64,000 nucleotides of DNA from assembly GCA_000004985.1 (NCBI GenBank), contig GG738845.1; one strand, written 5' to 3'. This document shows, one piece after another, positions 7,975 to 59,277 of the stretch (position 1 is its first letter; each line of letters opens with the position of its first letter). The DNA comes from Naegleria gruberi (taxonomy: Eukaryota). The notes under the pieces are model-generated. The model did not search any database. It was not told the DNA's origin and worked only from the letters and a program-made list of their open reading frames with translations. The position numbers were made by a program, and so were the translations under genes.

Positions 7975-10900
7975 ATGATGTCCCAAGAAGATCTTGCTCG
8001 TTTTGAAACACTTTGTCAATCTATTTACGGACAAAAGGAGGAAGCAAGAAAGGATGCTGAAAGACAACTTTTCATGTTCCAAAAATTAGAAAGCTATCCT
8101 AAGTTGGTGCTAATCTTTGATAAGAGCAAAGACCCACATGCTTTATTCTTTGCATCCCAACAAATAACCAAGCTATTGACAAGTCATTGGAATAGTTTTT
8201 CTAATGATAAAAAGACAGATCTTCGTAAGTTAACATTTTATTCTAAAATTATTAACTGGTTTAAAGGAAATTATCTTTTGAATTATTTAGCTAGTTGTGG
8301 GTTTGAACTTCCAAAGTTTGTATCTTCTGATTTATTTAAACTTGTTGGTAGATTGACCAAATTAGGATGGTTGGAAGACCAACAGAATCGTGATCTACCA
8401 GAATTAATTAAGAAGTACTTTATTACTGTTGCAAACCCTCAACTTTCTGTTGTTGGTATTAGGATTCTCGGAAATATTATTGAAGAAATGAATACACTCA
8501 CTACAAGAAAAAGCTTGACACAACATCGTAAAATTGCTGTTTCATTCAGAGATTTAGCTTTGAGAGGAATTTTTGAAACTGCCATTTTTACTTTGAAAGA
8601 CGTTTTAAGAGCTCTTGGAGGTGGAGGTTTAAATATTGGGGTTATGAATAATAATAAGGCAGCAAACGAAGCACTTTGTCAAGAGGCTTTAGAACTTTCA
8701 TTAAGTTGTTTAAAGTTTGATTTTGTTGGTATATTCCCTGATGAATCTTCAGAAGACATAGGCACTATTCAAATACCTGCTGCTTGGAGACCTCTGTTCG
8801 AAGAATCTGACACCTTAGAATTATTTTGGAATTTATATACTACATTAACAAATGCCAAGTTAAGGAAGGACGTTCTGCAAATTCTTGTTTTATTGTGCAG
8901 TGTAAGGCGATCACTCTTTACAGGAGATGATGAACGAAAACAATTTTTATCCAAGTTTTTTGAGGGAATGTGTACTATCTTACAATCACGATATGGTCTT
9001 GACGATCAAGATACCTACCATGAGTTTTGTAGACTTTTAGCGCGTATCAAGTCAAATTTCCAACTTAATGAATTTGTTGCATGCAAAGGTTATGTACAGT
9101 GGCTAGATTTATGTGCCAATTTTTCAATTGAAAGTTTCACCTCTCTTGAGTGGTCGAATCAATCAGTTTATTATATTTTAAATTTATGGTCAAGACTTGT
9201 TGCTTCAAAGCCTTACTTAAAGTCTGAAAATGAAAGTTATCTAGAAAAATACGTACCAGAAATATGTAAAAAGTATACAATTTCCAGATTAGAATATGCT
9301 AGACTTTGTGCACATGATGAATGTGATGACAACCCATTAGACCACAAAGAAAATTTAGATGAGCAATTAGATGCTATACCCCAACTTGTTCATTTTGATT
9401 ACAAAACAGCTGGACAACATTTAACCGATCTTTTCGACCCTGTTTTGCAGTTATACTTGGAATCTGTTAACAATAAGGTACATATGAAAAATTTGAACGA
9501 ACTAGAACAAAAATTGACATGGCTCACTTACATAGTTGGTTCTGTTATTGGTAAAAGATATGTTAGCTCGCTATCTGTTGATGAAGCTGAACTATTGGAC
9601 GGCACATTATCTGCCAGAATTTTGAGATTAATTCCTTTAATAGATATTAGAATTAAGAATTATTCATTTTCTAACCATCTTAAAGATGAATCATTACAAC
9701 ATCTGGAATATGCTTTGTTATATTTTATGAAAAATTTTAAGAAATCATACCTTGGTGATTCATCAACCTCTGTTGGTAATGGTAACAATCCAAAGATTTT
9801 TGTACGACTAGCCGAACTTTTAAATATTGGTGAACAACTTCAGGTATTGAATATTTTTATTGGAAAGATAGCAAGTAATTTGAAAGTATGGGCTAAAGTT
9901 GATAATATAGTTACTGAAACTATGGGACTCTTTGATGAAATAGCTTCAGGCTACAATAGTGCTAAACTGGCATCAAAGCTTGAAACAACTCAATATCTTT
10001 TGTTGAATCATGGTCCTGAAAATTTCCCATTTTTGAATGAAATTACAAATCTTAGACAAAGAACAGCTTTTTACAAGACGCTATGTAAACTCCTTTTTTT
10101 ACAAAATTATACAGAAGATGATTTTACATCATTTATCAAACCATTGGAATCAGTTAGTGACAGATTAAACTCTATAGATAATCCAGAAATTTTCAAACAG
10201 GAAGGTGTTAAAAACGCTCTAATAGGATGGTGTCGTGACCTTCGAGGAATAGTATTTGGTTGTAATAATAAGAGAACTTATACATTCTTTTTTGAATGGT
10301 TTTTTGACAAGTACAGTGGAATTTTGGAAAAGGCTGCTCAAGTCTGGTATGCTGATCAATTTGTTATGAATTCATTGTTGAAATTTTTAGCAGATTTTGT
10401 ATTGAACAAGAATCAAAGAATTGCTTTTAGTTATAGCTCACCTCATGGTATTTTAATATTCAAAAAGACAAGCTCTATTTTGACAAACTATGGTCAAAGA
10501 CTCCATAACGTGCCAATCAAAAAGGAAGCGTACGCTGAAAAATATAAGGGTATTTGCACTAGTATGAATATTTTATCCAGATGTTTGGCTGGTAAATATT
10601 GTAACTTTGGCGTTTTTGATTTGTACAAAGATCCTGCCCTCAATGAAGTTTTGAATACTGTTATTCGTCTTGCACTTAGTATTCCATACTCGGATATAAT
10701 GGCATATCCAAAATTATGCAGAGCATACTATGGATTGATGGAAACCCTTTTCCAAGAACATACCCATACAATTATTAGATTTGAAACATCCATTTTCTTA
10801 CAAATATTGAGCTCTCTTGAAGAAGGTGTTTCCATTGAAGAATTGAGCTTATCTTCTCAAGTTTGTGCTGCTTTGGATAACCTTTTTACTTTTTATTATA

Positions 10901-11265
10901 CTCAAGCTAAGAAAAATACTCCAGATGCTCAAGTTTTAGCAAATCACTTAAAACAGAACGATAATTTGATTCCAAATATGTTAACTCAATTCTTTAGAAT
11001 AATTATTTTGGAAGAATGTGGCAATCAGTGGAGTCTATCAAGGACCATGTTGGTATTGATAGTACTTAACCCTTCATTCTATGAAAATTTGAAACAAGTA
11101 ATTATCAATTCTGTTGCTGGAGATGATGTTGAACGAGCATCCAAAGTGAGGGAGGCTTTCGATAAGCTAATGGATGGTGTTGAAATTAATTTAGAACCAA
11201 AGAATCGTGACAAATTTACTGGGAATCTAATAACGTTCAGACAAGATGTACGAAATGTAATTTAA
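7975..11265 (+). CDS. xpo7: exportin-7 (RanBP16) family nuclear export receptor, 1096 aa
   Basis: Single long ORF. The N-terminal importin-beta-like region and the 'TKLGW' motif match exportin-7. Length matches the roughly 1090-aa animal proteins. No introns needed. Confidence 0.85.
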   Translation: MMSQEDLARFETLCQSIYGQKEEARKDAERQLFMFQKLESYPKLVLIFDKSKDPHALFFASQQITKLLTSHWNSFSNDKKTDLRKLTFYSKIINWFKGNYLLNYLASCGFELPKFVSSDLFKLVGRLTKLGWLEDQQNRDLPELIKKYFITVANPQLSVVGIRILGNIIEEMNTLTTRKSLTQHRKIAVSFRDLALRGIFETAIFTLKDVLRALGGGGLNIGVMNNNKAANEALCQEALELSLSCLKFDFVGIFPDESSEDIGTIQIPAAWRPLFEESDTLELFWNLYTTLTNAKLRKDVLQILVLLCSVRRSLFTGDDERKQFLSKFFEGMCTILQSRYGLDDQDTYHEFCRLLARIKSNFQLNEFVACKGYVQWLDLCANFSIESFTSLEWSNQSVYYILNLWSRLVASKPYLKSENESYLEKYVPEICKKYTISRLEYARLCAHDECDDNPLDHKENLDEQLDAIPQLVHFDYKTAGQHLTDLFDPVLQLYLESVNNKVHMKNLNELEQKLTWLTYIVGSVIGKRYVSSLSVDEAELLDGTLSARILRLIPLIDIRIKNYSFSNHLKDESLQHLEYALLYFMKNFKKSYLGDSSTSVGNGNNPKIFVRLAELLNIGEQLQVLNIFIGKIASNLKVWAKVDNIVTETMGLFDEIASGYNSAKLASKLETTQYLLLNHGPENFPFLNEITNLRQRTAFYKTLCKLLFLQNYTEDDFTSFIKPLESVSDRLNSIDNPEIFKQEGVKNALIGWCRDLRGIVFGCNNKRTYTFFFEWFFDKYSGILEKAAQVWYADQFVMNSLLKFLADFVLNKNQRIAFSYSSPHGILIFKKTSSILTNYGQRLHNVPIKKEAYAEKYKGICTSMNILSRCLAGKYCNFGVFDLYKDPALNEVLNTVIRLALSIPYSDIMAYPKLCRAYYGLMETLFQEHTHTIIRFETSIFLQILSSLEEGVSIEELSLSSQVCAALDNLFTFYYTQAKKNTPDAQVLANHLKQNDNLIPNMLTQFFRIIILEECGNQWSLSRTMLVLIVLNPSFYENLKQVIINSVAGDDVERASKVREAFDKLMDGVEINLEPKNRDKFTGNLITFRQDVRNVI

Positions 11266-14157: not shown

Positions 14158-15336
14158 ATGGGAAAATTGTTTGCAAAGAGGAAAAAAGAGGAAGTAATTT
14201 CATCGTCTTCTGAATCAACATCATCGGACAGTGATAGTAGTAAAATAGTATCAAAGGCATATCTAATCACAACCTCCGATGAGGAAGAGATATCAAAGTT
14301 GAAATCTTCTCCAAACCCAATCAACATTGAAATAGTTTTCGACTTGAGAAATTCAAAAAGGCTGATACGGTGTATTCAAGATATTGATGATCATAGGAAT
14401 TTGGGACAGGATCATTTTATTGAAATGCTAAAAGATAAATTAATTTTAATTATTTTGGGCCACGTGAAGGAACTAATGAGTAACGATTTTGATGAAGAAT
14501 TATTTGACAAGTTTTTTAGTTTTTTAAATAGACGGTTAATTTATAGATCCATGAATAGTGTATCTCAGTTTTATATTACCAAGAGTGACAAATCAACTGA
14601 TGATGTTGACCCAACCGATTTTCTATTTTTTGAGTGTTTGGAAGAGATTATAATAACCAAGAAATGGTCACGATATGGTTTGGAAGGTGTTATGAATGAA
14701 CCCATTCAATGTATTTTAATTAACAATAAGGGAGATCGTTCTTGTGAATTCGAATCAGCCTTCATAATAATTTATGCCAGGGAGCAACCACGTGGTGAAT
14801 TCAAATTCTTGATTTGTAAAGTTGAAAATGATGTTTGGAGTTTTCCTGGTGGTAAGAAAATGTTTCCTTCCGAATCTTTTGAAAACTGTATCACTAGAGA
14901 AGTGAGAGAAGAGCTGTACGGTTTTTCCATCAGCTCTATAGAATCTAGTATAGGACTGGGACCACTATTCTCTTTTGGGGGAAGCTCTGTTTTTGTGCAC
15001 GAAGTGGAATGGGGTAAAACTGGAGAAATTGTTAATAATTTAATTAAGAATTATCAGTCTCTTAAAAAGGAAAATCAATTATTTGATTTTGATACTGAAA
15101 AAACATCCAAATTTATCAAGGAGGATGAGGAATATTTGGATAATTTACTAGAAATCTCTAAAAAATTTAAGTTTGTAGAAGAAATTGTGGATTACCAGTT
15201 TATTTCAGCAGACGAAATAGAGAAAATGCAGGGTGGAAGATCTTTCTTTTTGAAACAACTACATAATTCATTTCAAAAAAATATTGTACGACGATCCATG
15301 CAAACAAGTAAAAGAAGTAAAAAATTTAAACAATAA
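14158..15336 (+). CDS. Nudix hydrolase domain protein with an acidic Ser/Asp-rich N-terminus
   Basis: The Nudix box E-x7-REVREEL-x-G sits within 'PGGKKMFPSESFENCITREVREELYGF'. I place the start at ATG 14158 (MGKLFAKRKK) rather than the ORF-track start 14050, which overlaps the upstream gene. Confidence 0.45.
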   Translation: MGKLFAKRKKEEVISSSSESTSSDSDSSKIVSKAYLITTSDEEEISKLKSSPNPINIEIVFDLRNSKRLIRCIQDIDDHRNLGQDHFIEMLKDKLILIILGHVKELMSNDFDEELFDKFFSFLNRRLIYRSMNSVSQFYITKSDKSTDDVDPTDFLFFECLEEIIITKKWSRYGLEGVMNEPIQCILINNKGDRSCEFESAFIIIYAREQPRGEFKFLICKVENDVWSFPGGKKMFPSESFENCITREVREELYGFSISSIESSIGLGPLFSFGGSSVFVHEVEWGKTGEIVNNLIKNYQSLKKENQLFDFDTEKTSKFIKEDEEYLDNLLEISKKFKFVEEIVDYQFISADEIEKMQGGRSFFLKQLHNSFQKNIVRRSMQTSKRSKKFKQ

Positions 15337-24535: not shown

Positions 24536-26644
24536 TTACATATCAAGAAACCTTTCAAAATCGTCCATAATATCTGATTCTGAAGGAGGAACAAAAGTTG
24601 ATAATGTGGGAGAACCCATCTCAGAAAATAGTGAATCACCATTTAAAATTGGAATCTCATCGAATATTTCTGATATTGTCGTTGGCTCAATCACCAATGT
24701 CTCAAAACCAGAACACTGTATTGTGGAAATACCAAGCTCATCAATAGAGTCGAGTTGTTTTTGAATTTTAAATGGGGAACCATTATAAATGATTCTTTCC
24801 TCCTCAGTGTTTTTGTCTTTGAGGGCAACTACAAACACTAATGGTTTATCATGATTAATATCTCTAAAGGAAATACTATACTCAACATGGAGAGAAACTA
24901 ACGATGCCTGAATATTAAAGTTGCAACAATTCACAACATTTGTATCAATCCACTTTTCTCCATTAAACGAGAGCTCTTGTTTGCTTTCTGCATCCAGTAT
25001 TTTAAAGCATATATCATGGTATTCTGATAATTGTGTTGGAACGTCGACATATAATAGGAAGGTTTCATTGAGGGAAAGTTCTTTTGGAAAAGCAAAGTTT
25101 GGAAATTTGGACAGATCTACATTGAGTGAATCATGAAATACTGTCACAATTATCCACTGTTTTAACAAATCAAAAGCAGATTCTTGATTGCTTTTGGTTA
25201 CATTAGACTTGGACCTCTTTCTTGTGGTGTCACTATCATCTTGTAAATCGGATTCTTGTTCATCGTCATTACCAAATAAAAGACTTTCTTTTTTTCTCTT
25301 CTTTTGAGAATGCAATTCCTCTGAGTGTTGAGCAAGATCTAACATTTCTTCATCATTACATAATGTAGGATCATTGGATTTTCCATTTTCGTTTAAATCT
25401 ATTGACATTTTCAACAACCTCTCCTGTTTACAATTTACATGAATATTGTATGATGAATCTGCCTTTGTTTTGGCTCTTTTTCTGTTGACCATAATTTCAA
25501 AAACTGCAATAGAATTGACATTGTTGTCACTATTTGAAGAGCTTGAGCAATTAGGGGATTGAATTGAATGTTTTAACTTGGTGCTGGTGGTGATATCCTT
25601 TCCTCGAATTTTAATTTCAATGGGAGGAGAAGTTGGAGAATTGGTTGTTTTCTTCTTCTTTTTCTTTCCCTCTGAGCAATCTTCTTCGAGTTGAAATTCT
25701 AAATCTGCCAAGGAATAAAGTTTACTTGGAAGAACTATTAAGAGATAATAGAAACAATCAGTACTAATCAAACACTTGTTTGTATGTACAATTTTTGTAT
25801 GGTGGTGTGAATTTGTAAACTTTGATTCCTCCTGGCCATTTGTTGTATTTGGAGAAAATTGATGTTGTATCAATAATCTATACCAATTTTGTTCAAATGT
25901 TGAACTTTTTCTTTTTGTGTTTCCCTTTTTTATAAAAATATGAGTGGAACAGCCATTATCAAAGAATTGAGGAGAGTTGACAAGTTGGTCAAAAGTTGGA
26001 CTCATTGAAGTTGTACTACAACTCAACTTTTTATCTGTATTTATAGAATTAGTTGTATTAGAAGAAATAGAATCTTGAACACTATTATTCAATAGAAAGT
26101 TAGAAAATATTTGATTCAATTGACTCATTGTAGAATTGTTCATAGTGTTATTCATTAACATGGTTAACATTTGAGTAGAATCTAAATTATCATTCACTTG
26201 ACTTAAATTTGTAGTACTGGTGGAATTGATGATAGGTTGTTGAGTATTATTTAGCAATGGATCATTTGACATCATCATTCTCATCATTTGCATGACAAGA
26301 TTTGAATCCATCACAACTCCATTATCACAAGTGTTCATTGTTGCTGATCTTTCACCAATACAATTATTCGAATTGATAGTGGTATTATTATTATTAGGCA
26401 ATGTTGTATTGATATTGTTGTTCATCATCATCGTTGTATTTTGTTGGGATGATGTCATTGGAGTGAAAGAGAAAGATTGGAGGGAGTTATTTGTAGGTAT
26501 CGGACTGTTGATGGAATTTGTATTGTGGTTGGAATGCATTTGTTTACTTGAGGAAGCTGCTTTCACTGCCTCTAATAGCATACTAGTTAGAGTTTGTTGA
26601 TGTTGTTGTTGCTGACAATTATTTTGATTCATAATAGAACACAA
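24536..26644 (-). CDS. Asn/Gln/Thr/Met-rich low-complexity protein (702 aa) with a structured ~230-aa C-terminal domain of unknown family
   Basis: Long ORF with prion-like N/Q/T tracts in the N-terminal half (e.g. 'MMMNNNINTTLPNNNNTTINSNN'). The C-terminal region (QWIIVTVFHDSL...SIDELGISTIQCSG) is non-repetitive and looks globular. It is possibly a transcription regulator, but there is no motif proof. Confidence 0.45.
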   Translation of the reverse strand: MCSIMNQNNCQQQQHQQTLTSMLLEAVKAASSSKQMHSNHNTNSINSPIPTNNSLQSFSFTPMTSSQQNTTMMMNNNINTTLPNNNNTTINSNNCIGERSATMNTCDNGVVMDSNLVMQMMRMMMSNDPLLNNTQQPIINSTSTTNLSQVNDNLDSTQMLTMLMNNTMNNSTMSQLNQIFSNFLLNNSVQDSISSNTTNSINTDKKLSCSTTSMSPTFDQLVNSPQFFDNGCSTHIFIKKGNTKRKSSTFEQNWYRLLIQHQFSPNTTNGQEESKFTNSHHHTKIVHTNKCLISTDCFYYLLIVLPSKLYSLADLEFQLEEDCSEGKKKKKKTTNSPTSPPIEIKIRGKDITTSTKLKHSIQSPNCSSSSNSDNNVNSIAVFEIMVNRKRAKTKADSSYNIHVNCKQERLLKMSIDLNENGKSNDPTLCNDEEMLDLAQHSEELHSQKKRKKESLLFGNDDEQESDLQDDSDTTRKRSKSNVTKSNQESAFDLLKQWIIVTVFHDSLNVDLSKFPNFAFPKELSLNETFLLYVDVPTQLSEYHDICFKILDAESKQELSFNGEKWIDTNVVNCCNFNIQASLVSLHVEYSISFRDINHDKPLVFVVALKDKNTEEERIIYNGSPFKIQKQLDSIDELGISTIQCSGFETLVIEPTTISEIFDEIPILNGDSLFSEMGSPTLSTFVPPSESDIMDDFERFLDM

Positions 26645-27125
26645 AGAAGAATAAAGTTGTAAAATTGTTTTTTTTGTGTTTAATTTACTGTAGGTGGATC
26701 ATTTTGACTTGTGGCAGGTAATTCCAACATACAACAAATCTTAGAATCACATTTTGTATGTTGGTATGAACTGATAAGAATAAAAATTATTATGGAAACA
26801 AGAAAGCAAATTCAATCGGGTTGACTTAAATGATACTACCAAAGACCGATTAAGAATTGATTCAAACCTCAATAAACATCAAACAACAAGTCTAAATCGA
26901 ACAATTAATTGTGTGAGAGCAAACTGTTTGACAAGTAGAACAGCCAATCACTTTTCACAAAACCGATGAGCGTTGCGTGTGTGAAGAAGACTATCAACCA
27001 TCCGTAAAAAAACTCACAGTCTTAGCACCGCGCATAAAGTAATATCAAAAGCATCTGGTGCCCAAGAGACTTTGTCTTGCTTTTTAAACTATATATTAAT
27101 TTATTTATTTATTTTAATTGGATAA

Positions 27126-50514: not shown

Positions 50515-52252
50515 ATGAGCGGCTTGCAATTGTTGAACCCAAATTCTGATTCTGCTAATATTTCTGAAGCTCGTCTGATAAATATTGCTGCTGCAACTTC
50601 AATTCAAAATCTTCTTAAAACCAATATTGGACCAAGAGGAACATTGAAAATGTATGTAGAAAAGTAGTAATACATTATCCGAATAATAATATTTAATAGG
50701 TTGGTCAGTGGTGCTGGTGATATCAGAATCACAAAGGATGGATCCATTCTTCTCAATGAAATGGTACGTTTTATATTATGAATTGTCATAATTAACTTAT
50801 TTATGTGGTAATTAGCAAATTCAACATCCAACAGCAGCCCTTATCGCTCGTACTGCCACAGCACAGGATGACATAACTGGAGATGGTACAACAACAACAG
50901 TTTTATTAATCGGTGAAATGTTACAACAGGCAAACAGATTCTTGATGGAAGGATTGCACCCATCTGTTCTTATTGAGGGTTTTTATTTGGCTAAAGCCGA
51001 AGCCAGAAAATTCCTCGAAACATACAAGGAAGAAATGAAAGAAAAAATCAAGATTGACCGTGAAGTTTTAATTAGTGTTGCTAGAACTGCTCTCCAAACT
51101 AAATTATATCCAGAACTCGCCAATCAAATGGCTGATATTATTGTTGATGCTATCAAATGTGTTCAAATTGATAATCGACCAATTGACTTATTCATGGTTG
51201 AACTTATGCACATGCAACACAAGATGGATCTTGAAACTAGATATGTCAATGGTTTAGTTTTGGATCATGGTGCTCGTCACCCAGATATGAAACGTGAAGC
51301 TAAGGATTGTTATATTTTAACATGCAACGTTGGTTTGGAATATGAAAAATCTGAAGTTCACTCATCTTTCCAAGTCAACAGTGCCGAAAAGAGAAAACAA
51401 CTTGTCGATGCCGAAAGAAAAGTTGTTGATGATAGAGTTCAAAGAATTATTGATTTAAAGCACCTAGTTTGTGGAGATGATCCATCTAAGAACTTTGTTG
51501 TTATTAATCAAAAAGGTATTGATCCTATCTCTCTTGAAATGTTTGCTAAGGCTGGTATTATTGCTTTGAGAAGAGCAAAGAGAAGAAATATGGAACGTTT
51601 AACTTTGGCCTGTGGTGGTGTTGCTATCAATAGCGTTGAAGAAATGGCACCTGACGTTTTGGGATATGCTGACCATGTTTATGAACAAGTTATTGGTGAA
51701 GAAAAATATACTATTGTTGAAGGTTGCAAGAATCCACACAGTTGTACAATTTTATTCAAGGGACCAAATAAGCACACTATTGCCCAAGTGAAGGATGCAG
51801 TCAGAGATGGTTTGAGAGCTGTCAAGAATGCTATTGAAGATGGTGTTGTCATTCCAGGAGCTGGTGCTTTTGAAATTGCTTTAAGTGCTCATTTATTGAA
51901 ATATGCCGACTCTGTTCAAGGTAGAGTTAAGTTGGGAGTTAAATGTTTTGCTGAAGCTCTTTTGGTTATTCCAAAATCTCTTGCTCAAAATTCTGGTCTA
52001 GATACCCAAGATATCTTGATTAAGCTTCAAGAAAAACACCAAAAGGGACAACCAGCTGGTTTGGAAATTTATTCTGGTGAAGCTATTGATCCAATTCAAG
52101 CAGGTATTTTGGATAACTTTATTGTAAAACAACAAACACTGGAAGCTGCCACATTTACTGCCACTCAACTACTCTATGTTGATGAAATTCTCAAGGCAGG
52201 TAGAGCCCAAAAACCAAAGACAGAAGAACAAGATATGGAAGATTTCGAATAA
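50515..52252 (+). CDS. cct6: T-complex protein 1 (CCT/TRiC) subunit zeta, 545 aa, 3 exons
   Basis: Exons are 50515-50651, 50700-50763 and 50816-52252. Intron 50652-50699 is GTATGT..TAG, phase 2. Intron 50764-50815 is GTACGT..TAG, phase 0. Spliced N-terminus: '...[58 protein letters not shown]' versus human CCT6A '...[58 protein letters not shown]'. The ORF track shows only exon 3. Confidence 0.9.
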
Positions 52253-52449: not shown

Positions 52450-53551
52450 TTAACTTTCAGCATCCTTAATTCCTTCATTTGAAATTTGATAGATTGCTTC
52501 AGCCTCTGGTAAAGAAGGTGAGTCATAAACCTTGCAAACACGTTGTTCTGCTCTTCCTTTTCTCAAATAAAGTCTAGTGGTACTAGCATGAGCAAGAATA
52601 TTACCTCCAACAGGTTTTTTGGGATCGGCTGTGAACATTGAGGCTCCAGATGGATCAGCTTGTACTTGATTTGTAATAAACACAGCAACATTGAATTCCT
52701 CAGCTAACTTCATCAAACTAGACAAGTATTGACCTAGTTTTTGTTGTCTCTCACTCAACTCTCCTCTTCCACAATAATCTACTCTAAAGAGGGCTGTAAC
52801 ACTGTCAACTATGAGTAATCTGAATGTGTCCTCAGCAAATTTCGAAGTCAATTGAGGCAACAATTGGAGCTGGTGATCGCTGGTGTAGGCTCTTGCAACA
52901 ACAATGTTTGAGAGAACATCTTCACCATTCAAGCCAAACCTTTCTGCAATTGGTCCAATTCTCTCAGGTCTAAACGTCCCTTCCGAGTCAATAACTGCAA
53001 CCTTTCCACTTCCTCCACCTTGAGATCTTGGTAATTGAGCAGTTACGCACAAAGTATGACACATTTGAGTTTTACCAGTTCTAAATTCGCCAAACACTTC
53101 TGTAATTGACATGGTTTCAATCCCACCTCCAAGTAAAGTATCTAAAACGCTTGATCCAGTAGTAATTCTAATAACCTTCTTTCTTTTTCCCATAAAATCA
53201 ATTCCTGAAACGAATCCACTAAAACTAATCTTTGATGTTGCTTCCAAAATCTTGTCAACTTTAGCTTCACTCAACCCCTTGATGGCACACAACTTTTTAC
53301 GTGTTCTCATCATGATTGATTCCACAGTGTAAATTCCAGCCTCCTTCAACTGGTTCATTATGAAAAGGCTTCGTCAATATCAAGATACTTACCTTTTTAA
53401 TATCGGCTGCACCAATTCCAACCTCTTGAAGTTTGTCGATAAGGCTCCAACTTTGCTCATCTGAATCAGCACAAGCCTCGGTTTCTTCTTCTTGATTAGT
53501 TTCTTCTTCTTCCTCTTCAACTTGAGACTCTTTCTGCTTTTGCTTTGCCAT
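52450..53551 (-). CDS. rad51: DNA repair/recombination protein Rad51 (RecA-family strand exchange ATPase), about 352 aa, 2 exons
   Basis: Exon 1 is 53393-53551 (acidic N-terminus ending in the HhH 'GIGAADIKK'). The 43-nt intron 53350-53392 is GTAAGT..CCAG, phase 0. Exon 2 is 52450-53349. Walker A 'GEFRTGKTQ' is present. The C-terminus '[39 protein letters not shown]' matches Rad51 rather than Dmc1. Confidence 0.9.
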
Positions 53552-54760: not shown

Positions 54761-57700
54761 ATGAGCGAATTATTTGAAACCAGCAATCAAGAAGATGATT
54801 TGTTCGGGAACAGTGGTGAGGACTTCTCATCCTTTTTGCAACAACCACTTTCGAAACCAATAGGACAAAACACGGAGTTGGTTTCTGAAATGCATAGTAT
54901 TTCTTTATCCGATACTGTGGTTAACCACCCAACACACATTGAACAGGAGAATGACCAACAGGAAAACAATGATCAAATCGTGCCTTCTTATGAAACTGTC
55001 AAAGAAGAAAAAGAAGAAGAACCCCATACTACTCTTCAAGATGATGGAAAAGAATTTAATTCCGAACCGGTAAACAATGATTTAGGTTTTAATGGTGAAG
55101 ACGATTTATTCGGTGGATCAACCAGCAATGTACAGGATTTTGGTAGTATGATACTAATGCAACAAACACCTCCGATAGTTGAACCACATATTGCACCCCA
55201 AGAAATTGTTCCTCCAATTGTTCAAACTTATTTAAATCAGGAGAGTGCCATTCAACACCCTGAAAGTACCCATCCTATAATTTCATCTCCAACTATTAAT
55301 ACATCTTTTCCTCCAAATAGCGTTCCAACACTCAATCAATCCATCATTGTAAACAATAGTAGTGGTGCTACATCAAGTACTTTGAGCCCACCTCCTTTGC
55401 GTTCTACAAATAGTACCTCTTCAATTTCTTCCAGAAATAGATATGTGAATAGTTTCGGAACACAATCCAGATCTGCCTTCACTTTACCTGTTTCTAGCCC
55501 ACCAAGTGGTACTCCAACAAACATCAATCCTCAAACTCCTCCTATGGTGAATACTGAAAGAGTTGTTACAAGCACTCCCCCATATGGAAATTTAAGCAGT
55601 AGTTCTGTTATTCCTCAATATCCTCCAGTGGTTAATGCAATTAATTCAACATTGCCTCAACAAGTTCCAACTCCAACAAATGATAATCACTTTGCAAATC
55701 ACTATTCCAACAGCCAAAGCATGATTCCACTTAACAATAGATCTGCTGTTATGGAAGGATACTCTTCATCACCTCCACCTTTCCAAGGTAGACAAACACC
55801 AACCCAATTTGCAACTACAACTAATGGATTGGTAAATAACCCAATGATTAATAATGGACAAATGGTGAATAACTCATTGATGAATCCTGCTACAGTGAAC
55901 AATCAAAATATAAATCATTTGAATGGTAACTCAATGATGAGCCAATCAACTATGAGTAATATGGGGATGAATAATGGACAAATGATGAATAATTATGGAA
56001 TGATGAACTCTACAATTAACAATGCTCATCCAACTAATTTCATGCCTAACAATATGAATAATTCCATGAATATGATGAATCACCCACATTCCAACAGCCC
56101 AATGATGATGAATAACCCAATGAACCAATACATGAACCCAATGATGATGAATAATTCAATGATGCAAAGATCAATGTCTCCAAATTATCAACAAAATCAA
56201 ATAATATCTAGACAAATTTTAGATCAAGAAATTGAGTTACGTAAAACATATCCAAAACCAATATTTTGCTTTTCATTTGGTGGAAAGATTATTACATCTT
56301 TACCTACTATTAATCCACACTCGCAACCATCAAACAGCTTTGTTCACCAACAAAGAAATCAAGCTCTATACTATCAACCAGGATTATTTAAAGTGCAAAA
56401 ATTGAATCAATTAATTAATTATAGGTCCAGTATTATCAAATCATTGGAGGATTATCCAATCACCAATATTTCTCAACAATTTGATGAAAATAATTCAAAC
56501 AACATTAATATTTTGTTGGATCAATTGGTTAAATATATGAACTTGAAAATATATGAAAAGCAACAAGCCCTTATCCAAGATAATGACGAAAAGTGTATGG
56601 GAGAAAAAATGTTATGGGATTTGGTTAAAATTGTAAGCAAATATGTAAATGGCAATGTGAACATGGTAACTAGTGATATTAATTCCCTTCTTACTGTTCT
56701 AATTAATAACGTACCAACTGAATTACCAATTAATTCAGAAAATGAACAAACCTCCTTCAATGAGGCGGAACATGTTGTCAGTATTCAAAATTTGTTAATC
56801 AATGGCCAAATCAAGCAAGCTTGTCAATATGCACAAACCAACAAGATGTGGTCTCACGCTATACTTTTGAGTAGTATGATTGATAAACAGACATATCAAC
56901 AAGTAGTTTCCACTTTTGCCAAATTGACTCTCAACTTGGGTAGCCCACTTCGTACTCTGTATTGTACATTTGCTGGAAAGCCTTTGGAAGCATTTGAATC
57001 AAACAACTCTGTCAATGTTGATCAATATGGAAATCAATATACATTACAAACATCTCAAAACGAGCAACAACAATTAGAGAAAATGTCCTCTCAGTGGCTA
57101 CAAAATTTATCCATAATGTTTAATAATAGACAAGGTGCTACCAGTCAATCAGTAATTGAAAAGATAGGAGATATGTTGTGGAAGGATTGCTATCAAGTCC
57201 CTCAGTCTCACTTTTGTTACATGATAGGTGACTTGAGTGCTATTGTATCAGCATTTACGATAGCATCTAATTATCAAGCTGCAACTTCAAATCAATCATC
57301 CAAGGAAAATATTCAGCAACAATCGCAACAAGCAATGATTGCAATTTCCAATATTCTCTCCACTAGTATTGTAAATAAGAGAGTAATTTTATTAGGTGGT
57401 GATAATAAGAGAGATCTTAGACATTATATTAACGAAGAAACAATTCAATTGTCAGAGATTTTTGAATTACTTAAAGCAATTATCACTAAGAATTGCTTGA
57501 CAGCTGTCCAAGAACAAAATACCCCTCCAATATCAATGATTATTAATTCATCATTGTTAACCTACAAGTTGGTATATGCATACTGCCTTGCTGATTTTGG
57601 ATTCTTGGAAAAGGCAAATGAGTGCTGTGATTATTTGATTGAAATTGTGAAGAGAACTCAGCAATCTATGAAGTTCAATAATTATTTCAAACTCCACCTT

Positions 57701-58633
57701 CAAGAGCTCAAAAATAGAATTATTGAAAGTAATAGACTTAACAATATAGTAGTACCTCAAAGGAAACCAACCTCAGGTGCAGCTAATAATTCAGGGGTAA
57801 CGGGATGGTTCATGAAGGGTTTAGAGAGCATAATCCACGGTGGAGATAGTCCAACAACTCCAGTCGAAAGTACAACTACCCTCATTCAAACCAATACAAT
57901 CAATACCAACTCAATGATACCAAACAATAATATTCCATCCCAACAACAGCCTAATTATCACAATACCATTGGCCAGGGTATTCAAGCAAATCCAATTCGC
58001 TCATCTACACCAACTAATATGATTTCTACTCAGCCTTCTTATCAATCATCTACTCAAACCCCACCACCCTCAACTCACACACCTCAACCACCTTCCTATC
58101 AAGCAACATCTATTCAAACTCCACCACCTTCCAATAATACTCCTCCACCAACCTCCACACCTCCAGTCAACCAAGCAATTAATAATACCTATGCTGAAGA
58201 AGGAAGTGGTGTTGGTGGTTGGTTCAAGAGTTTGTGGGGAGGAGGAAGTAAAGCAAGTAAGAAAGAAGCAAACATTGGCAAGAAGAATGAATTTTATTAC
58301 GATGACATAAAAAAGAGATGGGTAAGAAGAGGTCAAGAGAACGAAGTTGAAGCACAGGTCCAAGCTCCTCCACCATCTCTCTCTGCAATCTCTTCCACAA
58401 CCCTCCAATCTGCTGCCTCACAAATGAGAGGAGGTGCTGGTAGATATGTAAACATGTTCAGTGGCCAACAACCCACAAGTAATCCACCAATGATGTCAAA
58501 TATGCCTCCACCAATGATGGGAAATATGCCTCCAAGTAACCCAATGACGGGAAATATGCCTCCACCTTCCTTTGGTACAATGCCATCATCTAATATTATG
58601 CCTCCATTCTTCAATCCTAACACCAATAATTAG
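54761..58633 (+). CDS. large low-complexity protein (1290 aa), candidate Sec16-like COPII ER-exit-site scaffold
   Basis: The architecture is an acidic N-terminus, then S/T/P/N-rich and Met/Asn-rich disordered regions, then a ~450-aa globular central domain starting with the beta-strand 'PIFCFSFGGKIITSLP' (like the Sec16/Sec31 ACE1 blade that inserts into Sec13) and containing 'WSHAILLSSMIDKQTYQQVVSTFAKL', then a Pro-rich C-terminus with MPPP repeats. The family assignment is from memory of Sec16 central conserved domain features, not a database hit. Confidence 0.4.
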   Translation: MSELFETSNQEDDLFGNSGEDFSSFLQQPLSKPIGQNTELVSEMHSISLSDTVVNHPTHIEQENDQQENNDQIVPSYETVKEEKEEEPHTTLQDDGKEFNSEPVNNDLGFNGEDDLFGGSTSNVQDFGSMILMQQTPPIVEPHIAPQEIVPPIVQTYLNQESAIQHPESTHPIISSPTINTSFPPNSVPTLNQSIIVNNSSGATSSTLSPPPLRSTNSTSSISSRNRYVNSFGTQSRSAFTLPVSSPPSGTPTNINPQTPPMVNTERVVTSTPPYGNLSSSSVIPQYPPVVNAINSTLPQQVPTPTNDNHFANHYSNSQSMIPLNNRSAVMEGYSSSPPPFQGRQTPTQFATTTNGLVNNPMINNGQMVNNSLMNPATVNNQNINHLNGNSMMSQSTMSNMGMNNGQMMNNYGMMNSTINNAHPTNFMPNNMNNSMNMMNHPHSNSPMMMNNPMNQYMNPMMMNNSMMQRSMSPNYQQNQIISRQILDQEIELRKTYPKPIFCFSFGGKIITSLPTINPHSQPSNSFVHQQRNQALYYQPGLFKVQKLNQLINYRSSIIKSLEDYPITNISQQFDENNSNNINILLDQLVKYMNLKIYEKQQALIQDNDEKCMGEKMLWDLVKIVSKYVNGNVNMVTSDINSLLTVLINNVPTELPINSENEQTSFNEAEHVVSIQNLLINGQIKQACQYAQTNKMWSHAILLSSMIDKQTYQQVVSTFAKLTLNLGSPLRTLYCTFAGKPLEAFESNNSVNVDQYGNQYTLQTSQNEQQQLEKMSSQWLQNLSIMFNNRQGATSQSVIEKIGDMLWKDCYQVPQSHFCYMIGDLSAIVSAFTIASNYQAATSNQSSKENIQQQSQQAMIAISNILSTSIVNKRVILLGGDNKRDLRHYINEETIQLSEIFELLKAIITKNCLTAVQEQNTPPISMIINSSLLTYKLVYAYCLADFGFLEKANECCDYLIEIVKRTQQSMKFNNYFKLHLQELKNRIIESNRLNNIVVPQRKPTSGAANNSGVTGWFMKGLESIIHGGDSPTTPVESTTTLIQTNTINTNSMIPNNNIPSQQQPNYHNTIGQGIQANPIRSSTPTNMISTQPSYQSSTQTPPPSTHTPQPPSYQATSIQTPPPSNNTPPPTSTPPVNQAINNTYAEEGSGVGGWFKSLWGGGSKASKKEANIGKKNEFYYDDIKKRWVRRGQENEVEAQVQAPPPSLSAISSTTLQSAASQMRGGAGRYVNMFSGQQPTSNPPMMSNMPPPMMGNMPPSNPMTGNMPPPSFGTMPSSNIMPPFFNPNTNN

Positions 58634-58695: not shown

Positions 58696-59277
58696 ATGCC
58701 AAAAGTAAGAGAATTAAAACACCACGAACAAAAGCTATTAAAAAGAGTTGATTTTTTAAATTGGAAGTCGGATGGTGTCACTCCCGAATATAAGGAATAT
58801 ATCTTAAAAACCATTCAAAAATACCAATTAAAAGATCAGAAGGAATTTTTTAATTACCAGAGAATAGCAACACAAATCAACAACACATTAAATAGTATTA
58901 AAGAATTAGATGATAAAATTTATAGAGACTTTAAAGTTGATCAATTAGTGATGCTTGGTAAAAAATTATTTGATATGGGAATTTTGGATTCGGAAGCAGA
59001 AATAGAAACATTAAAAAAGATAACTGTGGGTAGATTGTGCAGGAGAAGAATCTCGTATCTTCTCAAGGTTTTACACTTCTCTGAAAGTGTAAGATTGGCT
59101 AATTTGAATATTCAACATGGCCATATTAGGATTGGACCAGAAGTTGTCAAAGATGAAGCATTCCTTGTTTCAAGAAATCTTGAAGATTTTATTACTTGGA
59201 CAAACAAATCAAGAATCAAATCAACAATTCGTAAATTTAATGAGACATTTGATGATTTTGAAGAGCTACAAGAATAA
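58696..59277 (+). CDS. imp3: U3 small nucleolar ribonucleoprotein IMP3 (ribosomal protein S4/S9 N-terminal + S4 RNA-binding domain)
   Basis: 'KVRELKHHEQKLLKRVDFLNW' and 'RRISYLLKVLHFSESVRLANLNIQHGHIRIGPEVVKDEAFLVSRNLEDFITW' align with human IMP3 ('KLKFHEQKLLKQVDFLNW', '...[30 protein letters not shown]'). The start is taken at Met 58696, not the ORF-track 58657. Confidence 0.8.
   Translation: MPKVRELKHHEQKLLKRVDFLNWKSDGVTPEYKEYILKTIQKYQLKDQKEFFNYQRIATQINNTLNSIKELDDKIYRDFKVDQLVMLGKKLFDMGILDSEAEIETLKKITVGRLCRRRISYLLKVLHFSESVRLANLNIQHGHIRIGPEVVKDEAFLVSRNLEDFITWTNKSRIKSTIRKFNETFDDFEELQE

Follow-up and report, generated by a model that had tools for sequence, protein, structure and literature searches.

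Sec16 is a scaffold at the sites where vesicles leave the endoplasmic reticulum (ER) and a regulator of the COPII coat. In Pichia, the region upstream of its central conserved domain (CCD) binds Sec24, Sec31 and possibly Sec23, with a weak affinity for exit sites that is strengthened by dimerisation of the CCD (PMC3814151). Sec23 is bound by the part of yeast Sec16 that follows the CCD. This part has several triple-proline (PPP) motifs, which dock in a cleft of four aromatic residues in the gelsolin domain of Sec23 and which occur in Sec16 (PMC7594496). Here we describe the Sec16 gene of the amoeba Naegleria gruberi, which lies in a 64,000-nucleotide (nt) stretch of contig GG738845.1 (assembly GCA_000004985.1; the window), and report that both the segment directly upstream of the CCD and the C-terminal tail of its product are extraordinarily rich in methionine (Met). 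This richness is genuine and extreme by statistical measure; it is shared across the genus, is all but confined to this lineage, and stands within a well-known protein. Its main parts, in positions of the window, are as follows.

54761-58633, plus strand: open reading frame (ORF) of the Sec16 orthologue, 1290 amino acids (aa) plus stop, 3873 nt, uninterrupted, single exon.
55835-56176, plus strand: low-complexity tract rich in Met and asparagine (Asn), aa 359-472, 114 residues, directly upstream of the CCD.
56258-57838, plus strand: CCD as delimited by Pfam, made up of the mid-region with its beta-strand 'FCFSFGGKI' (aa 500-626) and the helical TPR_Sec16 domain (aa 675-1026).
58466-58630, plus strand: C-terminal tail rich in Met and proline, aa 1236-1290, the 55 aa that follow 'RYVNMFSG', with PPP at aa 1249 and 1267 plus 'MPPS' and 'MPPF'.

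The upstream tract contains 28 Met (24.6%) and 35 Asn (30.7%), together with 10% serine, 5% glutamine and 3 aromatic residues; it has one arginine and no aspartate, glutamate or lysine. Against a Met background of 2.4%, taken from 16,291 aa in the other long ORFs of the window, the binomial tail for this Met content is 2e-20, and the best Met-biased segment holds 25 Met in 81 aa (P=5e-21). A sequence-only reading of this DNA had claimed that Met exceeds 20% over more than 100 residues, which is borne out, and had put the tract at 55780-56200; the in-frame peptide is indeed there, although it is narrower than was proposed. The tract is thus an almost uncharged, Met/Asn-rich low-complexity segment that is prion-like by composition. 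Its Met residues are clustered beyond chance and number far more than the at least 5 by which Met-rich prion-like domains have been defined (PMC9312190), and on its composition it is best placed among such domains as a new member.

The domains of this kind in Pbp1/ataxin-2, TDP-43 and Pab1 have the same clustered Met, uncharged low complexity rich in Asn, glutamine and serine, and scarcity of aromatic residues (PMC9312190, PMC8394241). The likeness is compositional only, the local Met content of the Naegleria tract is very high, and the hosts differ: Pbp1, TDP-43 and Pab1 are RNA-binding proteins (PMC8394241), whereas the Naegleria host is a scaffold of membrane traffic. For scale, a census of human Met-rich prion-like domains listed 78 of them in 51 proteins, the most Met-rich whole protein having 13.8% Met, and its text contains neither SEC16 nor a COPII term (PMC9312190). 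We also considered a copper-binding 'Mets motif' (MxM/MxxM) for the tract. Met-only Cu(I) sites, as in Ctr1-type transporters, are typically extracellular or periplasmic; Sec16 is cytosolic, and the candidate was rejected for that reason.

The C-terminal tail (for example 'SNMPPPMMGNMPPS') carries 10 Met (18%), 29% proline and 18% Asn without any charge, and the binomial tail for its Met content is P=7e-7. A degenerate (G/S)NMPP repeat had been read here at 58440-58633. The peptide exists, although over the narrower span 58487-58612 (aa 1243-1284), and part of it is a true repeat in the DNA:

58483-58534, plus strand: tandem repeat of 24 nt in the tail, 2.2 copies with 92% matches, encoding 'PPMM(S/G)NMP', Tandem Repeats Finder score 90.

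This repeat is genuine at the DNA level and recent, but the tail as a whole is better described by its PPP motifs than as a (G/S)NMPP repeat.

The ORF encodes the true Sec16 orthologue of N. gruberi, in accordance with its earlier description as Sec16-like. Pfam PF12931 (TPR_Sec16, the ACE1-type helical part of the CCD) matched aa 675-1026 with E=1e-40 and 140.8 bits against a cut-off of 22, spanning profile positions 1-296 of 298, and PF12932, which covers the Sec16 mid-region and its Sec13-inserting beta-strand, reached 33 bits against a cut-off of 23 over aa 500-626. The 'FxFxFGGK' anchor of this beta-strand is common to 91 members of the Sec16 family, and the conserved C-terminal region of Sec16 is present too, with 'NEFYYDDIKKRWV' and 'RYVNMF'. 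The best matches were the Sec16 proteins of N. lovaniensis, with 52% identity, and N. fowleri. Orthology and gene structure are secure because in both of these relatives Sec16 is likewise a single-exon gene followed by the same Imp3-like gene. In the window, which has about 33% G+C throughout, the downstream ORF 58696-59274 (Imp3/S4-domain) encodes a product identical to N. gruberi XP_002683117.1, and a contig of another N. gruberi sample has an identical Sec16 sequence over the last 539 codons. A phmmer search against PDB sequences found no Sec16 chain, only a weak match to Nup96 (E=0.008).

An exact look-up of the 1290-aa product found no record in the protein collection, though the product of the neighbouring gene is catalogued, and no N. 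gruberi protein turned up among the homologues found for Sec16; therefore, public data may lack a Sec16 gene model for N. gruberi or give it other splice sites. The missing record is also what speaks for the possibility that the ORF is mis-framed or spans an unrecognized intron and that the Met-rich peptide is never made. We regard this as extremely unlikely. The ORF runs for 3873 nt without interruption, and a single frame holds the conserved motifs that flank the tract as well as the Sec16 domains downstream. Moreover, the other two forward frames of the tract hold 28 and 14 stops, and in the orthologues equivalent Met-rich regions are encoded by genes of one exon. The framing on which the sequence-only reading had depended is therefore correct.

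The rarity of the tract was assessed within the Sec16 family. A HMMER scan with the Sec16 core (aa 480-1030) across 1.84 billion representatives gave 882 relatives at E<=0.001, among them N. lovaniensis with E=2.6e-202, and Met-window statistics were taken from the best 150 of these plus earlier matches (147 proteins of at least 300 aa). The maximum number of Met per 114-aa window has a median of 6 in this sample, and the 28 of N. gruberi is the highest value, followed by Heterostelium album (24), N. lovaniensis (22), N. fowleri (17) and one metagenomic protein (15). The earlier view that such a tract is rare thus holds within the family, where N. gruberi ranks first among about 150 Sec16 representatives. 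For the 150 aa that precede the beta-strand, the median Met content of 91 'xFxFGG'-anchored sequences, the three Naegleria proteins included, is 1.3% and the 95th percentile 6.0%, and the Naegleria proteins alone exceed 7%. The heterolobosean Sec16 proteins compared were those of the three Naegleria species and of Percolomonas. Because the Percolomonas upstream region is rich in glutamine, serine and proline and not in Met, the upstream Met-richness arose on the way to Naegleria, inside that lineage. Used as the only query, the tract (aa 340-480) had no match at E<=10 in a collection of 5.8 billion proteins, a result which the composition correction predicts and which is uninformative on rarity.

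Within the genus it is composition that is conserved and not sequence. The upstream 150 aa before the CCD beta-strand contain 18.7% Met in N. gruberi, 14.7% in N. lovaniensis and 11.3% in N. fowleri, and the tails contain 18%, 13% and 14%, respectively. The strongest Met-biased segment of N. lovaniensis holds 47 Met in 300 aa (P=4e-24), and that of N. fowleri holds 40 Met in 313 aa (P=1.5e-17). Loss of the Met-rich tract in close orthologues had been named beforehand as the finding that would count against its significance. The orthologues keep its composition (11-15% Met upstream, 13-14% in the tail) and so do not refute it; its sequence is unconserved by the shuffle test. Compared with composition-matched shuffles, the alignment of the tract with its orthologues gave z=1.9 and -0.2 (proximal) and z=1.7 and 0.35 (distal), while a linker segment of 30 residues that adjoins the tract, 'MSPNYQQN...KTYPKPI', gave z=17. 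Invariant Met columns near the end of the tract in the three-way alignment had suggested positional conservation of Met, but the same was obtained by chance in the shuffle test and the idea was rejected. Two elements bordering the tract have counterparts or are conserved in the relatives:

55772-55780, plus strand: PPP motif before the tract, aa 338-340, 'SSPPPF', with 'MMTPPPLMG' and 'MMTPPPVMG' at the aligned position in the orthologues.
56177-56260, plus strand: conserved linker from tract to CCD, aa 473-500, 'SPNYQQNQIISRQILDQEIELRKTYPKP', predicted helix.

What has been kept in both arms of all three species is an unusual balance of residues. Met makes up 12-25%, and isoleucine, leucine and valine together 5-9%, against 21-24% in the folded core; lysine is absent and aspartate and glutamate are near zero. 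ATG is the sole Met codon, and any single-base change turns it into a codon for isoleucine, leucine, valine, threonine, lysine or arginine. Isoleucine accounts for only 0.7-3.2% of the arms as compared with 7-9% of the core. Since the sequence has fully turned over, yet Met has been kept and the residues one step from ATG are scarce, we take the pattern to speak for a Met content held by selection and not simply tolerated.

Neutral drift would account for the arms in another way: codons rich in ATG and AAT would have expanded by slippage and internal duplication in an AT-rich genome, in arms that need only disorder and in which Met has no specific role. We consider this explanation possible but doubtful. 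It fits the absence of sequence conservation beyond composition, and in Sec16 generally the CCD alone is strongly conserved (PMC4419792). AT-rich amoebae of other lineages also show Met/Asn or Met/proline runs in their Sec16 tails. It fits less well with a Met bias that lasts in both arms and three species despite randomized sequence, and with the scarcity of residues one step from ATG. The DNA of the tract itself bears on both sides. The sequence-only reading had called the tract a repeat array, and this did not survive: Tandem Repeats Finder reported nothing for the Met/Asn tract even at a minimum score of 30, contrary to what expansion of a repeat would lead one to expect, and head-to-tail DNA copies characterize the C-terminal tail and not the tract. 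A seed-and-extend search did detect one degenerate duplication:

56087-56164, plus strand: degenerate tandem duplication in the tract, 39 nt x 2 (56087-56125 and 56126-56164), 77% identity, encoding 'HSNSPMMMNNPMN' and 'QYMNPMMMNNSMM'.

The same search found a 27-nt pair 120 nt apart with 93% identity ('INNGQMVNN' and 'MNNGQMMNN') and several matches of 15-18 nt ('ATGATGAATAAC...'), the latter being expected because the tract sequence is so biased. The Met/Asn tract is thus a compositional bias and mostly not a tandem array, although its duplications, like the recent 24-nt repeat of the tail, are what drift by duplication would leave behind.

The surrounding DNA was also scanned for Met-biased segments at P<1e-5, over the 64 kilobases (kb) of the window and two 24-kb loci of the relatives' Sec16 genes, about 110 kb of Naegleria DNA with some 60 neighbouring genes. 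Besides Sec16, only one other real ORF was found, at 24539-26698 on the minus strand. It spans 720 codons from stop to stop and has a milder Met/Asn-rich region ('MQMMRMMMSN', 'TMMMNNN') beside Asn runs, where 111 aa include 17 Met (P=1.5e-9); no Pfam domain was found in it. Because this ORF shows a milder version of the same flavour, Met-containing Asn-rich regions in the N. gruberi genome are not exclusive to Sec16, but they are uncommon in the DNA scanned. A single further region among about 60 genes speaks against neutral drift, and the existence of that region speaks for it. Its presence, together with the unconserved sequence and the internal duplications, is what keeps neutral drift alive as an explanation.

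The two arms are linked by an event in N. fowleri, where 109 nt of the upstream Met-rich arm ('GGMMMSTSNNMLQPTPSNMMTNQAGFSLNNGMPP') have been copied in frame into the tail, 3513 nt downstream, with 96% identity:

10891-10999 and 14404-14512 (N. fowleri locus numbering): N. fowleri Sec16 intragenic duplication, 109 nt.

The junction of the copied arm with the tail created a new 'MPPP', and the duplication is absent from N. lovaniensis and N. gruberi. Either one disordered arm recently passed sequence to the other within the gene, or the copy may be an artefact of assembly. Met-rich modules are evidently usable in either arm.

A second link is a short motif, RY[VI][DN]x[FL], that the Naegleria proteins carry at both ends:

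55439-55456, plus strand: 'RYVNSF' in the N-terminal disordered region, aa 227-232, second copy of RY[VI][DN]x[FL], invariant in the three Naegleria species.
58442-58459, plus strand: 'RYVNMF', C-terminal copy of RY[VI][DN]x[FL], aa 1228-1233.

Among 125 Sec16 proteins, 49 have this motif in their last 250 aa, and only the three Naegleria proteins have the N-terminal copy. The acidic N-terminus also holds two 'DDLFG' motifs, at 54794-54808 and 55100-55114 (aa 12-16 and 114-118), which are invariant in the three Naegleria Sec16 proteins and resemble putative short linear binding motifs.

How do these arms compare with those of the Sec16 proteins that have been studied? The Naegleria tract occupies the same place, directly N-terminal to the Sec13-binding CCD, as DR1 of yeast, the 'upstream conserved region' of Pichia and the localization region of the fly and mammalian proteins. 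These versions too are disordered and poorly conserved in sequence, and they localize Sec16 to exit sites (PMC3814151, PMC7594496). However, they are charge-clustered or rich in glutamine, proline and serine, with about 1% Met, whereas the Naegleria region is almost uncharged with 11-25% Met, and there is no sequence similarity between the two.

At the other end of the protein, beyond the conserved domains, N. gruberi Sec16 has a disordered stretch rich in proline that holds multiple PPP motifs. Motifs of this class bind the Sec23 gelsolin domain in Sec31, TANGO1/cTAGE5 and Sec16 (PMC7594496). The whole protein has eight (aa 210, 338, 1101, 1121, 1128, 1203, 1249 and 1267), and the orthologues keep their positions. 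The stretch beyond the CCD corresponds to the Sec23-binding region of yeast Sec16, and its parts are these:

58013-58165, plus strand: linker rich in serine, threonine and proline, PPP at aa 1101, 1121 and 1128, where the orthologues keep 'YTPPPTQ', 'TPPPP' and 'QTPPPP'.
58208-58465, plus strand: conserved C-terminal region with 'GVGGWF', 'NEFYYDDIKKRWV', 'APPP' and 'RGGAGRYVNMFSG', near-invariant in the three Naegleria proteins.
58607-58618, plus strand: [FY]FxP motif 'FFNP', aa 1283-1286, within the last residues 'PPFFNPNTNN'.

The tail conforms to the sequence pattern of PPP ligands, triple prolines in a disordered region of a COPII-associated protein, and contains two of them; it differs from the described cases in being short (55 aa), in having only these two strict PPP plus the MPPS and MPPF variants, and in being unusually rich in Met. 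Of the 125 Sec16 proteins, 41 carry the [FY]FxP motif within their last 160 aa, at 15 times its density elsewhere in the proteins, with examples from very different lineages ('KFFVP' of plant type, 'GGFFNPNGG' of Percolomonas, 'SFFNPQ'). Two conserved 'GV(T/G)GWF' segments lie at 57794-57841 (aa 1012-1027, just past the CCD) and at 58208-58243 (aa 1150-1161, the start of the conserved C-terminal region).

The proximity of Met to PPP is not peculiar to Naegleria. In Sec16 proteins from outside the genus, Met is the residue most enriched within 3 aa of PPP, 1.7-fold over the local context of +/-30 aa. It occurs there at least once in 57 of 123 proteins, and the enrichment survives removal of the two most repetitive proteins. 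In the dictyostelid Heterostelium album, the Sec16 tail consists of 'APPPMMGSSPMG' repeats, units of Met plus PPP, with 24 Met in 114 aa, but it has no Met-rich tract upstream of the CCD. Its repeats are probably independent of those of Naegleria, because the lineage is unrelated and the repeat unit differs. Given the family-wide enrichment of Met near PPP and the repeats of H. album, the 'NMPPP' units of N. gruberi are a local amplification of a Met-plus-PPP theme that the family shares.

Tract and tail are best classed as a new compositional variant of the disordered arms of Sec16. As to what they do, we lean, with modest confidence, towards the explanation that both are lineage-specific Met-based sticky regions for weak multivalent binding to COPII proteins and/or each other. 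According to this explanation, the tract and the tail would be two disordered arms flanking the Sec13-binding central domain, which in Naegleria have taken on an unusual make-up: nearly uncharged and polar (Asn, serine, threonine and proline), with Met as almost the sole hydrophobe. The upstream arm would probably make many weak Met contacts with COPII subunits and/or with other Sec16 molecules, and dimerization of the CCD would reinforce these. The 'NMPPP' units of the tail would bind in the aromatic cleft of the gelsolin domain of Sec23, where the neighbouring Met may add a hydrophobic contact.

Several points weigh against this explanation. Firstly, we infer the function of the arms from position and composition only. 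Secondly, N. lovaniensis and N. fowleri are close relatives, so the genus-wide conservation amounts essentially to that of two lineages. Thirdly, the unconserved sequence of the tract also fits a neutral low-complexity region maintained by slippage, and a mutational or slippage contribution to its composition is plausible because of the internal degenerate duplications and the second, milder Met/Asn-rich ORF. Lastly, the structural model is weak. An AlphaFold2 (AF2) prediction of aa 330-1040 from an 8-sequence alignment had a mean predicted local distance difference test (pLDDT) score of 41, which is poor overall. In it the tract lacked secondary structure and scored pLDDT 23-28, a low-confidence helix covered aa 474-496 (model residues 145-167), and the CCD was helical at pLDDT 50-70. 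Such a model is compatible with disorder of the tract but too poor to prove it.

A more specific form of the sticky-arm explanation adds a redox switch: the Met-rich arms would drive condensation of Sec16 at ER exit sites or in stress assemblies like Sec bodies, and oxidation to Met sulfoxide would dissolve them, as is reported for Pbp1 of yeast and for TDP-43 (PMC8394241). The sequence-only reading had pointed to redox-sensitive phase separation of this sort in other systems. This is unlikely in our estimation. It draws on the resemblance of the tract to Met-rich prion-like domains (clustered Met, Asn-rich, uncharged, few aromatics) and on the fact that the hydrophobe retained in the arms is Met and not an aromatic or aliphatic residue. 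The Met-rich low-complexity domain of Pbp1 phase-separates and is melted by hydrogen peroxide (PMC8394241), and the formation of Sec bodies in Drosophila involves low-complexity sequences of Sec16 and Sec24 (PMC4270098). The analogy is, however, one of composition alone, and Met beside PPP is a family-wide trait for which a redox explanation is unneeded. Moreover, literature searches combining Sec16 or Naegleria with 'methionine-rich' yielded no Met-rich Sec16, and one on Naegleria plus Sec16 gave comparative-genomics papers only. The strongest version, in which Met would be the sole 'sticker' in both arms and exit-site assembly or a Sec-body-like store would be gated by reversible Met oxidation, is very unlikely.

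Two further genes of the window lie on the other side of Sec16. A Rad51-family gene at 52450-53551 on the minus strand is split between two ORFs, 53297-53551 and 52450-53358, that overlap but differ in frame, and this suggests a short intron near 53300-53360. Just upstream of it is a gene of the chaperonin TCP-1 family (50918-52252).

The arms of Sec16 are thought to act through weak, multivalent and largely sequence-independent contacts, and the types of residues that carry these contacts are still being worked out. Two Naegleria arms that converge on Met, and hold that composition while their sequence turns over, amount to a natural experiment on the contact residues. If Met proves dispensable, Naegleria offers another lineage-specific low-complexity flavour in a known protein. 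If Met is necessary, the arms would show that Met-rich low-complexity domains extend beyond RNA-binding proteins such as Pbp1, TDP-43 and Pab1, and would offer a possible handle on redox control of export from the ER. The Naegleria amoeba moves between oxic and low-oxygen habitats; should the arms indeed be gated by Met oxidation, this would tie secretion to the redox state of the amoeba and extend the Met-switch principle of Pbp1 and TDP-43 to the secretory pathway.

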